UHGV virus genome: UHGV-0294613
Length of the DNA: 11,642 nt
Strand: one strand, 5' to 3'
DNA from: a virus
Shown here: in pieces, positions 3,098 to 10,912 of the stretch
Numbering within the stretch: position 1 is the stretch's first letter
Layout of the letters: each line of letters opens with the position of its first letter
The notes under the pieces: model-generated
What the model was told of the DNA's origin: nothing
What the model saw: the letters and a program-made list of their open reading frames with translations, nothing else
The model's database searches: none
Position numbers and translations under genes: made by a program

Positions 3098-3907
3098 TCA
3101 ATGAACGGTATCGAGCAGCTTTAACAGCTCTGGGAATCGGGATTCGAAGAAATGCGGCTGCGTCTCGCGCGGATTTGCGGGACTGGTGATGTTCTTGCCG
3201 AACATGCAGCCTTTCGCCGTCAGCGACCAGAATTTTTTGATGTTGTTAATCGCTGTACGGCTGTATCGTTCGCGCTGTTCGACGATCCCCAGCTTCGCCA
3301 TCTGGTGATATGCCTGATTAGCCGTAAGGCGGATACCATACTGTTTCAGCAGTGCACTCAGCGACAGCGTAGGGCGACTTGAGCCATCAGGCGCGTCAGC
3401 AGGAGCATCAATGGCATAGCGCGGTGCCAGATTCGGTAAGCCAACAGCCTCCTGGAGTTTCTGACAGGCACCAAGCACAGATGAGTTAGACAGGTTTAAC
3501 TCCCGGCGCATAAAGTCCAGCAGAATCACGCCAGCCTGCATCTTGTCAGCAGCCTGTCCGGATAACTTTTCCGGCGCGCTGGTTACCATATCGAAAGTAC
3601 GGATCACCTTCAGATGGAATGACGGGCTGATCCACATTGCATAGGCATACACCAGTTCCTTACAGACATACGTTCCCCGTTCATTTCCCCCATGAATCAC
3701 ACTCACCGGGTCAACACCCAAATTCTGGGTGTTGGTTAATTCATGAACAAGCTCAACAGTTTGTTGGCTGGAAAGAAACTTTCCTGGCTCCTTGGTTCTG
3801 GCATTTGCACCAGATGCTACTGCTGCGCGATGCAGATCGTTCAGGCTGTAACGCCCATAAGCATCACGACGAACTTCAATACCATCAATGACCATCAGAT
3901 TATTCAT
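3098..3907 (-). CDS. KilA-N domain protein, 269 aa
   Basis: N-terminal segment MVIDGIEVRRDAYGRYSLNDLHRAA...GGNERGTYVCKELVYAYAMWISPSFHLKVIRTF matches the KilA-N pattern. ATG 3907 is preceded by AGGAG with a 9-nt spacer. Confidence 0.6.
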   Translation of the reverse strand: MNNLMVIDGIEVRRDAYGRYSLNDLHRAAVASGANARTKEPGKFLSSQQTVELVHELTNTQNLGVDPVSVIHGGNERGTYVCKELVYAYAMWISPSFHLKVIRTFDMVTSAPEKLSGQAADKMQAGVILLDFMRRELNLSNSSVLGACQKLQEAVGLPNLAPRYAIDAPADAPDGSSRPTLSLSALLKQYGIRLTANQAYHQMAKLGIVEQRERYSRTAINNIKKFWSLTAKGCMFGKNITSPANPRETQPHFFESRFPELLKLLDTVH

Positions 3908-3926
3908 ACTTCGTTTCTCCTCTTAA

Positions 3927-4316
3927 TCAGGCAGCTGCACCCGCCGTTTTCTCGTACTTACTGATAGTGATCTCGACCTTCCCTTCCGGGATAACCGGTC
4001 CCCACTCCACCAGCATTCTTTTCACCTGACTGTCGTCTTCCCACACCCCCGCGTGGGTCAGGGCGTCAAACAGCGCCTTGTTATAGTTGTCCAGATCGCG
4101 GATCCTGTTATCCGGAGGAAACAACACGATCTCCACTGAAGCAGGTGCCGACGTTGGTTTCGGCAGACGACGTAACTGCTCAACTATTGCTGCGCACGCC
4201 GCGCTCTGGAATTTTCGCCCCGCCGCGCTTATCAGGCTCTTACCAGCAAACGCCCCTTTGTTGGGGTGTCGCCAGTACGTGTTCACGCTGGGCGGAAAAG
4301 GCAGGATCAGCTTCAT
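3927..4316 (-). CDS. rusA: RusA-family Holliday junction resolvase, 129 aa
   Basis: N-terminal LPFPPSVNTYWR and central RDLDNYNKALFDALTHAGVWEDDSQV match the RusA signature (catalytic Asp cluster). ATGA start/stop overlap with the upstream gene at 4313-4316. Confidence 0.8.
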   Translation of the reverse strand: MKLILPFPPSVNTYWRHPNKGAFAGKSLISAAGRKFQSAACAAIVEQLRRLPKPTSAPASVEIVLFPPDNRIRDLDNYNKALFDALTHAGVWEDDSQVKRMLVEWGPVIPEGKVEITISKYEKTAGAAA

Positions 4317-5129: not shown

Positions 5130-6071
5130 TCACCCCCTGAATCCTGCCGGGATCTGGCTGTAGTCCACGTTGTCGTAACTGGCTTTGAAGTACGGGTCTT
5201 CACGTTTTTCTGTGTGCGTGCTGACGGACGGCGATAAGCGCAGGGAAAGCTCATCCCATTTTTCCCGCAACTTCGACGGGCTGAGCACGTTACGGCACCA
5301 GAACGGATCGCGGCTGACGCGGCTGTACATCTCGCAGATTTGTTTGTGAGTACGACCATCCTGCACACACATCAGGCGAATTTCGTTTGCCCATGCTGTC
5401 CAGTTCGGTTCTTTGGGACGAACCACCTCGCCGTCACATTCGGCGGCCTGCTCGTACAGGGCAATGATTTTTTTCCAGAGCCACTGTGCGCAGGTCAAAT
5501 CATCCTGCGTTCCCCACTGGCGCTTTTTAGGGCTGAATACAACCGCATCAGGATGGCGAGTTAAAAAATCCTGTTCAGCCGTCTGCGTGTCCGGTTGCGA
5601 AGCGTCCGGACGAGAAGGTTTTTTATCTGACGGATCATGTTTTGATTTTACTGACGGATCCCCGCCAGATTCTGACGGGTGAAAACCCGCTTTTTTGCCA
5701 GATTTCGACGCATCAAATTTTGACGGGTCAGATTTTGATACGTCAGATTTTGACGGGTCAGAATCTGACAGTTGAGAAAATGCCGCTGCCTGAAGCTTCG
5801 CAACGTTAAGCTGATAAACATTCGACGCATTGCGGTTACCCTGGCGACGCGCCTTACGCGTTAACCAGCCTTCTGCTTCCAGCCGTGCGATAGCCGTTCT
5901 GACGGTACTCATCCCCGCGCCAATCTGGCGGGCAATGGTTTCAATTGATGGCCAGCACACACCTTCGTCATTACTGAAATCAGCCAAGCGGGCCATAATT
6001 GCCACGCTGGATAATTTCATGCCTGACGCTGCGCAACCATCCCATACATAGCCGGTTAATTTAGTGCTCAT
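5130..6071 (-). CDS. Replication initiator (lambda O-like), 313 aa, with internal iterons
   Basis: N-terminal winged-helix-like region (SSVAIMARLADFSNDEGVCWPSIETIARQIGAGMSTVRTAIARLEAEGWL), a low-complexity repeat segment (DPSKSDVSKSDPSKFDASKS) encoded by DNA iterons, and a separate C-terminal domain. Gene order cro - CII-position gene - this gene matches lambdoid replication modules. Confidence 0.7.
   Translation of the reverse strand: MSTKLTGYVWDGCAASGMKLSSVAIMARLADFSNDEGVCWPSIETIARQIGAGMSTVRTAIARLEAEGWLTRKARRQGNRNASNVYQLNVAKLQAAAFSQLSDSDPSKSDVSKSDPSKFDASKSGKKAGFHPSESGGDPSVKSKHDPSDKKPSRPDASQPDTQTAEQDFLTRHPDAVVFSPKKRQWGTQDDLTCAQWLWKKIIALYEQAAECDGEVVRPKEPNWTAWANEIRLMCVQDGRTHKQICEMYSRVSRDPFWCRNVLSPSKLREKWDELSLRLSPSVSTHTEKREDPYFKASYDNVDYSQIPAGFRG
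5624..5773. repeat. Origin-type iteron array inside the initiator gene
   Basis: About eight copies of a ~15-bp unit with core TGACGG(A/G)TCA (e.g. GATTTTGACGGGTCA, GATTTTGATACGTCA, GAATCTGACAGTTGA), the last four in strict 15-bp tandem at 5714-5773. Confidence 0.75.
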
Positions 6072-7301: not shown

Positions 7302-7976
7302 ATGAAAACAATCCATGACATCCGGCGGTCTAACGCCAGAAAACTGAGAGATGGTGTTGGCGGGAATTCTTCCTTTGCCACTATGATTGATCGCGAGCCA
7401 ACCCAGACCAGCAGGTTTATGGGAGATGGTGCTACTAAAAATATCGGTGACAGCATGGCACGACACATCGAAAAATGTTTCGACCTGCCTGTCGGATGGC
7501 TCGATCAAGAACACCAGACAACGAACATCACAAAAAAACCTGATGTTTCAATCACTAATAAACAAATCACATTAGTCCCTGTCATATCATGGGTACAGGC
7601 CGGAGCATGGAAAGAAGTTGGATATTCTGAGGTTGATTTGAGCACAGCAGAAACGTATCCCTGCCCTGTACCCTGTGGGGAAATGACTTATATCTTGCGG
7701 GTGATAGGTGATTCAATGATTGATGAGTACCGCCCGGGAGACATGATTTTTGTCGATCCTGAAGTACCTGCCTGCCACGGTGACGACGTTATTGCATTGA
7801 TGCACGATACAGGTGAAACCACCTTCAAAAGGTTGATAGAAGATGGGACACAGCGTTATCTCAAAGCGTTAAACCCAAACTGGCCTGAGCCTTACATTAA
7901 GATCAACGGTAATTGCTCTATAATTGGTACAGTGATTTTCTCAGGAAAACCAAGAAGATACAAAATCAAAGCCTAA
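7302..7976 (+). CDS. cI: CI-type prophage repressor (N-terminal HTH plus C-terminal LexA-like S24 autopeptidase), 224 aa
   Basis: C-terminal domain carries the GDSM serine motif and a downstream KRL lysine; an Ala-Gly pair (VQAG/AW) is a candidate RecA-stimulated cleavage site. Divergent from cro across palindromic operators. Confidence 0.85.
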   Translation: MKTIHDIRRSNARKLRDGVGGNSSFATMIDREPTQTSRFMGDGATKNIGDSMARHIEKCFDLPVGWLDQEHQTTNITKKPDVSITNKQITLVPVISWVQAGAWKEVGYSEVDLSTAETYPCPVPCGEMTYILRVIGDSMIDEYRPGDMIFVDPEVPACHGDDVIALMHDTGETTFKRLIEDGTQRYLKALNPNWPEPYIKINGNCSIIGTVIFSGKPRRYKIKA

Positions 7977-7989
7977 TCAATGTTTATGA

Positions 7990-8011
7990 ACCTGCTTCGG
8001 CAGGTTTTTTT
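7990..8011 (+). terminator. Rho-independent terminator after cI
   Basis: ACCTGC-TTCG-GCAGGT stem with a UUCG-type tetraloop (7990-8005), followed by T7 (8005-8011), 14 nt after the cI stop. Confidence 0.75.
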
Positions 8012-8015
8012 ATAC

Positions 8016-8048
8016 TTGACAATGTACCTTTGAGATACATAATGTACC
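8016..8048 (+). promoter_or_regulatory. PL-like early promoter with operator half-sites
   Basis: -35 TTGACA (8016-8021), 16-nt spacer, -10 CATAAT (8038-8043). Overlapping AATGTACC (8021-8028), GATACAT (8033-8039) and AATGTACC (8041-8048) carry the same TGTAC core as O1/O2. Confidence 0.55.
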
Positions 8049-8132
8049 CAAGCGAAACAACGAACAGGCAGGACGCCCACGAAGTAGCCGCCTGGGGCAT
8101 ATGAAGTCCAGGATGATTCGTTAGCAACAAAA

Positions 8133-8166
8133 AAGCGCCCTACAGGACGCTTAGCTCTTTAACAAT
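8133..8166 (+). promoter_or_regulatory. nut-like element: boxB-like hairpin plus rrn-type boxA
   Basis: Hairpin AAGCG-CCCTACAGGA-CGCTT (8133-8152) followed by GCTCTTTAACAAT (8154-8166), which matches the rRNA-operon boxA consensus TGCTCTTTAACAA; about 100 nt downstream of the PL-like start. Confidence 0.45.
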
Positions 8167-8210
8167 CTGGTCCCCATCAACAAGTAACTGATAACTTGAG
8201 GAGATGTGAA

Positions 8211-8417
8211 ATGCACAAAACAGAACCCAAAATCGTCGCGCCTGGCTACACAGATGAGGAAATTTATGAGTGGATGACAAAGAAGCTGGCAGCTATAAAC
8301 CAGCTTCGTGAAGTGCTGTCTTATCGACAGGAAACAATAGACTCCTTAAAAAAACTGGATCAGGAAATCACGGTTTTATCACAGGATGTTACTTTAGATA
8401 TTGTGCAGACAAATTAG
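8211..8417 (+). CDS. Hypothetical small acidic protein, 68 aa (first gene of the PL-like operon)
   Basis: ATG 8211 is preceded by GAGGAG with a 7-nt spacer (the track's 8196 start is a TTG). AT-rich. Its 3' end overlaps the convergent 144-aa gene by 29 nt. No Arg-rich motif, so not N-like. Confidence 0.55.
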   Translation: MHKTEPKIVAPGYTDEEIYEWMTKKLAAINQLREVLSYRQETIDSLKKLDQEITVLSQDVTLDIVQTN

Positions 8418-8823
8418 GATCCCATTCATTTTCGTCAAAATCATCAAAGTGATGAATTTGTGATCTCCAGTCTCGATAATCTAAAAATTTCTGGGCGGTT
8501 ACGCTTATTTTATCAAGTGTGAGTTCATCCTGAATTGAAAGAAGAAGTTCATCAAATTTCATCTCATTAATCTGTTTTGGCATCCAGTGATGCTTCATCA
8601 GAATAAGGTGAACCAGAGCCTTTTTCCCATTCAACTGATTATAGGGAGTGCCGAATTTCTTCCGGTGCTCATGTAAGACAAGGTCCAAAAGAGTAAGTAA
8701 TGTTGCCCTTGATTCAACTTTGCTTATTTCGACTGATGACACTACCCCACTGATTTCAATGCCCCGATACTTTCCAACATTTTCACAGTGGGATTTGTAC
8801 AGCGTATAGATATTACCGGACAT
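8389..8823 (-). CDS. Hypothetical protein, 144 aa, AT-rich, antisense to the PL-like operon
   Basis: Complete ORF; ATG 8823 is preceded by AAGGAAAAG. Convergent with and overlapping the 68-aa gene. No family recognised. Confidence 0.6.
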   Translation of the reverse strand: MSGNIYTLYKSHCENVGKYRGIEISGVVSSVEISKVESRATLLTLLDLVLHEHRKKFGTPYNQLNGKKALVHLILMKHHWMPKQINEMKFDELLLSIQDELTLDKISVTAQKFLDYRDWRSQIHHFDDFDENEWDPNLSAQYLK

Positions 8824-8838
8824 TTCTTTTCCTTTTGC

Positions 8839-8887
8839 GTTGTTGGGGATAACCAGATTAACCGAATCCTTGTTGTTGGGGAATAAC
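8839..8887. repeat. Direct repeats GTTGTTGGGGATAAC / GTTGTTGGGGAATAAC upstream of the 144-aa gene
   Basis: Copies at 8839-8853 and 8872-8887, spaced 33 bp start to start, lying 16-65 bp upstream of the minus-strand ATG at 8823. Confidence 0.6.
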
Positions 8888-9107
8888 TAGGTCCACCTCG
8901 CCTGATGTGGCTAAAAGCAGGCACATAACAGCTAAGTATTTTCAACCAGAGAGAATCCTTAGCGTTGTGGTGAATGCGGCTCAGCGCACGCGGGTTAAGG
9001 TTGAGGCTGACAGTCGACCTTCTGTGGATACCCACCCGCCTGGTGTGCAACCTTCGCCAGGCACCGGGAGGCACCCGGCACCACAACTTTATGCTGTGTG
9101 TAGTCTT

Positions 9108-9154
9108 GGCGGTACCAGCTTGTACCCTTGCTTCCGGCTGGTACCGTCCTTTTT
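9108..9154 (+). terminator. Strong stem-loop with U-tract (plus-strand terminator candidate)
   Basis: 12-bp stem 9108-9119/9137-9148 (CGGTACCAGC pairs GCTGGTACCG, plus G-C and G-U closing pairs), 17-nt loop, then CTTTTT (9149-9154). No U-tract on the minus strand. Confidence 0.5.
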
Positions 9155-9156
9155 AC

Positions 9157-9241
9157 AAAACAGAGAAGAGCATCACCGGACGACGGGCTCATAACCCAAT
9201 CCATCCGGGCGGCTGCCACCGCAGGTGTTCTTCTCTGTTTT
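9157..9241. other. Long-range stem (13 bp perfect, about 18 bp with wobbles) enclosing a 49-nt substructured loop
   Basis: AAAACAGAGAAGA (9157-9169) pairs with TCTTCTCTGTTTT (9229-9241); inner stem CCGGA (9176-9180)/TCCGG (9204-9208). A-tract and T-tract flank the stem as in bidirectional terminators. Lies in a GC-rich stretch with no credible ORF. Confidence 0.45.
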
Positions 9242-9367
9242 GTGGAGAAACTAACCGCCCCTACGGGGGCATTTATGGAAATGTAATTGACTCAATAATC
9301 GCCGGACGGTGAGGGCTTCCTTTTACCGGAATTCAGCGCGGTGCAGCGCATATACGTGGAGAACAAA

Positions 9368-10256: not shown

Positions 10257-10562
10257 ATGACCACTTTTACCGACAAAGAACTGATTAAAGAAATTAAAGA
10301 GCGTATCAGCAGCCTTGACGTGCGAGACGATATTGAGCGCCGTGCTTATGAAATCGCACTCCTATCTCTGGAAGTAGAACCAGATGAACGCGAAGCTTAT
10401 GAATTATTCATGGAAAAGCGTTTCGGTGACTTAGTAGATCGTCGGAGAGCAAAAAACGGCGATAACGAATACATGGCATGGGATATGACTCTCGGTTGGA
10501 TCGTCTGGCAGCAACGAGCTGGTATCCATTTTTCAACAATGTCACAACAAGAGGTGAAATAA
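10257..10562 (+). CDS. Hypothetical protein, 101 aa
   Basis: ATG 10257 is preceded by GGAGG; its stop TAA overlaps the xis ATG at 10562. No family recognised. Confidence 0.55.
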   Translation: MTTFTDKELIKEIKERISSLDVRDDIERRAYEIALLSLEVEPDEREAYELFMEKRFGDLVDRRRAKNGDNEYMAWDMTLGWIVWQQRAGIHFSTMSQQEVK

Positions 10563-10912
10563 TGGAGCCATACAGCCTCACACTCGATGAGGCCTGTCAT
10601 TTTCTCAAGATATCCAGACCGACTGCCATTAACTGGATACGCACAGGGCGTCTTCAGGCAACACGCAAAGATCCCACTAAGAATAAATCTCCTTACCTCA
10701 CAACACGACAAGCCTGCATTGCGGCTCTTCAGTCTCCGCTGCATACTGTCCAGGTGAGCGCGGGTGATGGCATAACAGAGGAAAGAAAATGTCACTCTTC
10801 CGCAGAGGTGAAATATGGTACGCCAGTTTCACATTGCCGAACGGTAAAAGATTTAAACAGTCTCTTGGAACAAAGGACAAAAGGCAGGCGACAGGACTCC
10901 ATGACAAGCTAA
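10562..10912 (+). CDS. xis: Excisionase, 116 aa
   Basis: HTH-like [26 protein letters not shown]; sits immediately upstream of int and overlaps it (10789-10912) in another frame. Size and arrangement match P22 Xis from memory. Confidence 0.7.

Follow-up and report, generated by a model that had tools for sequence, protein, structure and literature searches.

The convergent gene pair

We analysed a window of viral DNA, the 11,642-nucleotide (nt) stretch of UHGV virus genome UHGV-0294613, in which two small genes converge and overlap at their 3' ends just behind the repressor gene of a prophage (Table 1). A first-pass annotation had placed a gene of 68 amino acids (aa) at 8211-8417 (+) and one of 144 aa at 8389-8823 (-), overlapping by 29 nt, and had credited the larger gene with its own ribosome-binding site. 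These assignments hold, and RefSeq annotates the identical two coding sequences in a 100% identical E. coli prophage. The same annotation had called both genes unrecognised, which proved wrong: each belongs to a catalogued phage family.

The 144-aa protein matches the NCBIfam model NF033230, "ECs1072 family phage-associated protein", at 157.8 bits (cut-off 70; profile positions 2-142 of 142) and phrog_5286 at 1.5e-90 (positions 1-144 of 144), that is, along its full length and above the curated cut-off. An exhaustive profile search for this family returned 76 representative clusters, nearly all of 145-155 aa, and this nearly uniform length indicates that ECs1072 is a stand-alone single-domain family. 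The 68-aa protein is a YdfC-family member by full-length similarity to phrog_1744 (6e-35, positions 1-68 of 68), with 39-41% identity to annotated YdfC genes over 97% of the query in tblastn; a hidden Markov model (HMM) of partner genes at homologous loci retrieves K-12 YdfC at 6e-30. Neither Pfam nor NCBIfam has a model for the YdfC family. Given the full-length PHROG matches of both proteins and the 76 clusters of the larger one, we conclude that both open reading frames (ORFs) are real genes.

The two proteins have a hydrophilic, mildly acidic composition. The AlphaFold model of the ECs1072-type protein, made with an alignment of 46 representatives, is all-alpha and has high scores (predicted local distance difference test 94.2, predicted template modelling score 0.88). 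In the family alignment W134 is invariant, while L50, R54, L64, G66, A69 and H72 are nearly so, and the 144-aa protein itself is identical across all six phage records that carry it in full. The YdfC-like protein opens with the motif EPxIxAxGxSxEExxxWMxxK, in which E5, P6, W21 and K25 are conserved, and continues into a coiled-coil-like helix whose PDB matches are coiled coils only. Across loci, YdfC-family proteins measure 65-100 aa.

Table 1. Features of the repressor-to-RNA region of the window
Feature	Position	Strand	Basis
ECs1072-family gene, 144 aa	8389..8823	-	ATG 8823-8821; AAGGA 8834-8830, 6 nt upstream; stop at 8389
YdfC-family gene, 68 aa	8211..8417	+	ATG 8211; GAGGAG at 8198-8203, 7 nt upstream; soluble, pI 4.8
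3'-3' coding overlap, 29 nt	8389..8417	.	Both ORF ends; homologous pairs overlap 29-194 nt
Variable cassette	8171..8852	.	Present or absent as a unit among e14/SfV-like prophages; GC 0.39
Conserved left flank (leader of the early-left promoter, PL)	8057..8170	+	Common to prophages with other cargo; blastn breakpoints 8122-8170 in CFT073, 2015C-3121, SfV, e14, OkiPb01715
Intrinsic-terminator-like hairpin	8133..8152	-	AAGCGTCCTGTAGGGCGCTT then TTTTGTTGCT; predicted 3' end of 144-aa gene transcript
Degenerate promoter copy	8887..8922	-	GCCTG..TTTAGC..TCAGGCGAGGTGGACCTAG vs consensus TTCACC-17-TGgTATCTT; in conserved right flank
Two CA-rich leader copies, GTTAT(T)CCCCAACAAC	8887-8872 and 8853-8839	-	Read from sequence; second copy at cassette edge
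PL-like early-left promoter, TTGACA-16-CATAAT	8016..8043	+	11/12 consensus matches; 68-aa gene is first ORF behind
Repressor intrinsic terminator	7988..8007	+	8-bp stem then TTTTATACTT; terminator annotated at equivalent place in SfV
cI-type (LexA/S24 family) repressor	7302..7976	+	Pfam Peptidase_S24 1.5e-26; ymfK / LexA family label in identical prophage; context, outside cassette
STnc100/PasD-like structured RNA, ending in strong terminator hairpin	8934..9157	+	Rfam RF02076, 43.4 bits (gathering score 47), E 7.8e-07

Conserved pairing at three sites

The surroundings of diverse ECs1072 members were scanned in six frames with the ECs1072 HMM and the HMM built from the small convergent genes. 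At 19 of the 23 distinct ECs1072-like genes, a YdfC-like ORF (HMM E < 1e-3) converged from the opposite strand and overlapped the larger gene by 29-194 nt. The remaining four also had overlapping convergent ORFs, which were weaker or unclassifiable: similarity was weaker in Sakai (1e-5 in a local search), L014 (1e-3) and L012/13 (BLAST only), and L021 had a coiled-coil ORF only, where L numbers are our handles for loci. Because the arrangement recurs at 19 of 23 distinct loci whose proteins are 25-55% identical, the convergent overlap exceeds chance. The partner proteins have diverged as far as the ECs1072 proteins, with pairwise identities that co-vary between the two families (Pearson 0.80, Spearman 0.38).

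The Q-holin interval is where Stx phages carry stx, and it is one of three sites that the pair occupies (L010/11, Salmonella ST64B and Klebsiella KPP5665-2). The second is the PL operon, between the repressor and integrase genes (the window, SfIV, L005, L009, L017 and L018), and the third is the early-right (PR) operon behind cro/cII (L019, L012/13 and Sakai Sp4, which holds the original ECs1072, now ECs_5703). Polarity is constant at all sites: the YdfC-like gene points the same way as the lytic operon, the ECs1072-like gene the opposite way. Relatives of the cassette lie in prophages of Shigella, Salmonella, Klebsiella and Serratia. In the records of ST64B (L015 3281-3715, GenBank AY055382) and KPP5665-2 (L016 about 3842-4291) the ECs1072-like genes are unannotated, and so is the YdfC-like partner of ECs_5703 in Sakai.

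Two of these loci are useful for comparison with the window. The ST64B pair, STMMW_20121/STMMW_20131, matches both families (ECs1072 HMM 5e-42, YdfC-like HMM 2e-21) and keeps a 71-nt convergent overlap, but it sits between Q and holin rather than behind PL, and protein identity is only about 30%. ECs_5703 of Sakai Sp4 is likewise antisense to its operon, with a YdfC-like ORF converging on it. However, this is the early-right operon, where the gene lies between a cII-like and a replication gene; its product has 151 aa and about 55% identity, and its upstream region has a perfect TATAAT.

Exchange of the cassette

The first-pass annotation had described the pair as an AT-rich block in a cargo slot beside the repressor and PL, and both points are borne out. 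The GC fraction is 0.39 in 8171-8852, compared with 0.45 in 7302-8170 and 0.54 in 8853-9340. The flanks, 8057-8170 and 8853-9268, are kept at 95-98% identity (89-95% in e14) while the interior is swapped among relatives. In CFT073 the slot holds one antisense gene for a 170-aa secreted-type protein, in strain 2015C-3121 an antisense gene for a 171-aa zinc-ribbon protein, and in SfV and OkiPb01715 a sense gene of 91-98 aa. In e14 of E. coli K-12 (L003 2652-3239) it holds an unrelated pair, ymfJ (+) and ymfI (-), which is also convergent, overlaps by 63 nt and is flanked by the repressor gene on one side and the STnc100-like RNA on the other; an arrangement of this kind may be a repeated theme in the slot. 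Of 5426 complete E. coli genomes, 403 (about 7%) matched the query 8000-9350, in which the cassette is included, over at least 80% of its length.

Classical lambdoid morons, or lysogenic-conversion genes, include bor, lom and the genes of the stx site. The term follows the moron concept of Juhala et al. 2000, as cited in PMC4104026 and PMC7067206. Our cassette fits it: it is extra DNA that is absent from close relatives at the same position between conserved flanks, it has a deviant base composition and its own terminator (8152->8133), it includes a gene antisense to lytic transcription, and its homologue is expressed in a lysogen. It differs from the classical examples in that two convergent genes, conserved as a pair, take the place of a single one, and in recurring at three moron sites.

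Such swapping could also arise if the two genes had no functional coupling. The YdfC-like gene would then be an ordinary early-lytic gene, the spot downstream of it a preferred insertion point for antisense morons that arrive independently, ECs1072 being the most frequent, and the overlap a matter of tight packing. The unrelated cargo in the slot of CFT073, SfV and e14 fits this account, as does the unrelated overlapping pair of e14, and some YdfC genes, of the Qin type, are followed by other antisense genes or by nothing. Still, we regard an uncoupled pair as unlikely. Three operons that differ in flanking genes and promoter type contain the pair, and in the e14/SfV lineage the YdfC-like gene lies within the exchanged segment, not in the conserved flank. 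Moreover, a partner is present at 19-23 of the 23 ECs1072-like genes vs 5 of about 34 non-ECs1072 sites of a conserved cargo-promoter motif described below.

Transcription signals of the large gene

Since the repressor, excisionase and integrase side lies on the plus strand, the early-left direction of the window is also plus, and the 144-aa gene is antisense to the lytic operon, as had been proposed. Its predicted transcript would continue through the whole YdfC-like gene to the hairpin at 8152->8133, which sits 59 nt past the start codon of that gene, so that it would be antisense to the small gene over its full length, ribosome-binding site included. In CFT073 this hairpin stands immediately 3' of the alternative antisense cargo gene. 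Terminator-like hairpins occur at comparable places in L009, L010 and L017, with a near-identical one farther out (+250 nt) in L018, and in ST64B and the Klebsiella phage the hairpin is located within the partner gene.

Many ECs1072 members share a conserved upstream region on the cargo strand, with a -35 element of TTCACC or TTTACC, a 17-nt spacer and the extended -10 TGgTATCTT, and the start codon follows 49-56 nt after the motif start. We compared the window's copy with 42 motif sites in IMG/VR and with L008, L014, L017 and L018. The consensus of promoter and leader reads GCCTG-n-TTCACC-acc-TCAGGCGGCAGTGGTATCTT-GG..CTCACACA..CCAAGAAGG..ATG (window 8887-8922 minus; L008, L014, L017, L018, L027-L067). 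Exact copies of its 20-nt core number 42, on 41 IMG/VR contigs, and an ECs1072-like gene follows eight of them. The others precede at least 15 unrelated small ORFs of 48-163 aa, placed at 49-56 nt at nearly all sites; one encodes a DUF1883 protein, one a protein with two hydrophobic segments and one a zinc-ribbon-like protein, and the rest are without assignment. The promoter-leader unit looks like a shared expression cassette for swappable lysogen cargo. No Rfam family covers this unit, the motif was not found in the literature, and no LexA box was found in the conserved promoter.

The window's copy of this promoter is degenerate, and the same copy is common to CFT073, which has different cargo; the CFT073 breakpoint at 8853 falls between the two CA-rich leader copies. 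The leader from the -10 to the Shine-Dalgarno element (e.g. L017 4958-4995; window 8839-8887) can form a hairpin with a CA-rich loop, CTCACACA or CCAACAAC. Its arms vary yet stay complementary (TCTTGG/CCAAGA, TCCTCTT/AAGAGGA, CTCTGTT/AACAGAG, ATCCTCT/GGAGGAT), and individual stems were not significant vs shuffles. Because the 5' arm overlaps the -10, it should be missing from transcripts that start at the cargo promoter. By analogy, the hairpin recalls fold-back protection against read-through translation.

Three further observations concern this region. In one prophage a CsrA-family gene (L005 2-169) lies directly upstream of, and divergent from, the ECs1072-like gene. The window leader has two GGA motifs, ACAAGGAUU and AAAAGGAA (the latter at the Shine-Dalgarno element), about 36 nt apart, and it is pure speculation that this spacing resembles a CsrA target layout. 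Finally, a transfer RNA (tRNA) gene at L017 4759-4832, in the early-left operon of a metagenomic prophage, adjoins the conserved cargo promoter.

Expression of homologues in lysogens

The first-pass annotation expected the large gene to be transcribed in the lysogen and the small gene to appear only on induction. We addressed both expectations with the ST64B homologue, which we identified as STMMW_20121 of S. Typhimurium D23580 by its 435-nt length, its 161-nt distance to the holin gene and its 71-nt overlap with STMMW_20131 (= Sb50). Owen et al. 2020 (PMC7067206) detected transcripts of STMMW_20121, read in the direction opposite to the lytic genes and from a promoter of the gene's own, in nearly all of their 17 conditions, and singled the gene out as a candidate accessory or regulatory locus. 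It reaches 60-270 transcripts per million (TPM) in 16 of the 17 conditions and 4.9 TPM in late stationary phase only (Table S5, PMC7067206). In the same study, the ST64B holin gene stays at 0.3-7 TPM outside SPI2-medium and shock conditions, and Q at 0.8-4.6 TPM. Thus, lysogenic transcription of the large gene holds for a homologue whose neighbouring lytic genes are silent, while in the window itself the promoter is degenerate and expression of the 144-aa gene in this lineage can be put forward only as probable. Arrays of uninduced Sakai cultures detected ECs1072, whose signal went down 2.1-fold at a growth transition (PMC2241611).

The expectation for the small gene failed as a general rule. 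The partner STMMW_20131 is transcribed in all conditions at 23-258 TPM, with its peak under peroxide and nitric-oxide shock, when the lytic genes rise (PMC7067206), so the ST64B lysogen transcribes both genes at similar levels. That paper passes over the transcription of STMMW_20131, its relationship to STMMW_20121 and the family. STMMW_20131 lies shortly downstream of Q with one silent gene (STMMW_20141) between them, and it is plausibly read from a constitutive PR'-type promoter.

A convergent promoter with a long antisense RNA could itself be the point of the arrangement. With or without the ECs1072 protein, it would act as a brake, damping leaky PL, PR or PR' transcription before it reaches toxic lytic genes, or neutralising a host-toxic YdfC-like protein. 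The cassette is always promoter-proximal in the lytic operon and faces it, and its predicted transcript covers the YdfC-like ribosome-binding site. Antisense RNAs with exclusion or regulatory roles are also familiar from lambdoid prophages, OOP being one. STnc6030 is another (PMC7067206). However, an RNA-only role has no need of a protein as conserved as ECs1072 (W134 invariant; R54, G66 and H72 near-invariant) with so confident a fold, and in ST64B the antisense transcript does not keep the partner's sense transcript from being abundant. We consider such a brake improbable.

Searches for function and weighing of the readings

Rex and Sie proteins of lambda and P22 are membrane-associated and co-oriented with cI or PL. 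Like rexAB and sieB, the cassette is cargo beside the repressor and PL with a proposed role in the lysogen, but its proteins are soluble, unrelated in sequence and fold, and convergently encoded. Neither has a transmembrane segment (maximum 19-residue Kyte-Doolittle means of 0.84 and 0.29), which rules out a membrane superinfection-exclusion protein of the SieA/SieB/RexB type. Profile and fold searches had been proposed as the way to a function, and the profile searches did assign both proteins to families. Otherwise, neither protein matched PADLOC-DB v2 at E <= 1 or Pfam, the 144-aa protein had no fold relative in PDB and BFVD, and no fold typical of toxins or defence proteins emerged. Comparing the YdfC and ECs1072 profiles with each other likewise detected no relationship between the two families. 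In the literature we found no function assigned to either family and no functional study of ECs1072, WP_000016389 or the STMMW loci.

Two toxin-antitoxin classes were considered. Type II systems have co-transcribed adjacent genes and a known toxin fold, neither of which is found here. The likeness to type I systems is limited to the convergent 3' overlap, as both partners are conserved, soluble protein-coding genes.

A broader version of this idea makes the ECs1072-type protein either a toxin or an effector against phages, acting by superinfection exclusion or abortive infection, with the YdfC-like protein as the antidote that spares the phage's own lytic growth; the role would then be of the exclusion, abortive-infection or toxin-antidote kind that the first-pass annotation had suggested. 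The slot beside the repressor and PL is typical of rexAB/sieB-type cargo, the ST64B gene is antisense and expressed in the lysogen, and three phages carry an ECs1072-like gene at the stx-type moron site. Moreover, ECs1072-like genes almost never occur without the partner while the partner can stand alone, which is the asymmetry expected of toxin vs antidote. These points are countered by the absence of a PADLOC match and of transmembrane segments, by a layout that is convergent rather than operonic, by the transcription of both genes in the ST64B lysogen and by a literature search that yielded no phenotype data. On balance, we treat an effector with its antidote as possible but doubtful.

The interpretation we prefer, with moderate confidence, is that 8171-8852 is a self-contained, horizontally exchanged cassette of the moron type, made of two dedicated partner genes in a fixed convergent layout, in which the small protein probably modulates the large one. 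The ECs1072-type protein would be the cargo: soluble, all-alpha, transcribed against the lytic operon from its own promoter and hence made in the lysogen, where it may act in the cytoplasm. The YdfC-like protein, encoded directly behind PL in the window, would be made once the repressor is lost. The two predicted transcripts share several hundred complementary bases and should therefore damp one another, whether by collision, promoter occlusion or duplex RNA. As a committed guess, we propose that the small coiled-coil protein binds the ECs1072-type protein and modulates or neutralises it.

Several results weigh against this interpretation. Contact between the ECs1072-type and YdfC-type products is a supposition. 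YdfC-like genes occur without an ECs1072-like neighbour in K-12 Qin, vB_EcoS-689R5 and PPompW, and they also adjoin three other cargo types (L034, L044, L053), so the small gene may partly belong to the phage backbone; the latter also favours an uncoupled pair. In Qin, ydfC (dicBF operon ydfA-ydfB-ydfC-dicF-dicB) is of the same small family as the window's gene and sits in a similar early-left operon repressed by the prophage repressor, where it is followed by the small RNA (sRNA) dicF as its window counterpart is followed by the STnc100-like RNA, but Qin has no ECs1072-like gene. The ST64B lysogen, as described above, transcribes the partner without induction. On the window's minus strand, the search for a sigma-70 promoter of the 144-aa gene yielded no candidate with 9/12 or more matches, and ACCTAG now stands in place of the ancestral extended -10. 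Finally, neither single sequences nor profiles gave a functional match in Pfam, NCBIfam, PADLOC or PDB sequences, and the fold comparison gave no functional clue.

Neighbouring features

The prophage is lambdoid, of the SfIV/SfV/e14 type, and the window represents its early region. Window positions 8000-9350 are 100% identical to a prophage of E. coli 210221272 that is integrated beside the tRNA-Thr (thrW) gene near proA, and the region from cI to the structured RNA has 98% identity to Shigella phage SfIV. The minus strand of the window encodes cro (YdaS-type helix-turn-helix), a cII-like protein, replication genes, RusA, KilA-N and DUF968 proteins and a Q-type antiterminator, and the plus strand the S24-type repressor (7302-7976), then an HD-domain 5'-deoxynucleotidase and an excisionase-like helix-turn-helix gene. 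The first-pass annotation was right to expect a PL-like promoter upstream of the pair (8016-8043) and excision and integration genes beyond it: the excisionase-like gene lies at 10478-10912, and an integrase follows in the identical prophage. Homology to phages with a different immunity region begins at 8057-8059, just downstream of the PL-like promoter.

The STnc100-like RNA that borders the cassette is conserved in 65 phage records and is present, at least in part, in 2819 of 5426 E. coli genomes, by a query that also included the PL flank. The frameshifted 'hypothetical protein' / ymfH that RefSeq places across this RNA is probably spurious as an ORF. A role like that of HK022 put found no support, with no HK022 record among the matches listed in the distant DNA search. 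ST64B encodes the sRNA STnc1310 some 330 nt downstream of cI, and peroxide and nitric oxide both induce it strongly; the counterpart of the window's RNA region should presumably fall roughly there.

Farther away, inside the replication gene at 5130-6071, positions 5640-5830 hold repeated, partly palindromic units that encode QILT/QNLT-type peptides in both frames. They are most likely the iteron array of a phage replication origin in an O-like gene. A chance match to a microRNA model at 5696-5770 falls within this array.

Implications

Both families were already catalogued as hypothetical, and one homologue had been flagged as an accessory locus. The seemingly obligatory convergent pairing with YdfC-type genes, the three moron sites with fixed polarity and the orphan fold appear to be undescribed in the searchable literature. 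These results turn two 'hypothetical proteins' into a defined, testable unit, a conserved pair with a fixed polarity to lytic transcription.

A bolder proposal, which we advance only tentatively and think unlikely, is that ECs1072 and YdfC form a previously unrecognised two-component prophage system. It would combine an orphan-fold cytoplasmic effector, a small coiled-coil antagonist and obligatory convergent overlapping transcription, and would protect the lysogen through exclusion, abortive infection or induction control. The pair would then be one of many cargoes of a shared promoter-leader cassette that lets enterobacterial temperate phages swap small lysogen-expressed genes. If the effector and antagonist roles are true, the pair would give prophage-encoded host protection both a fold and a regulatory layout that are new to it. 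If they are not, it would still be a clean two-gene moron that moves between three classical moron sites.

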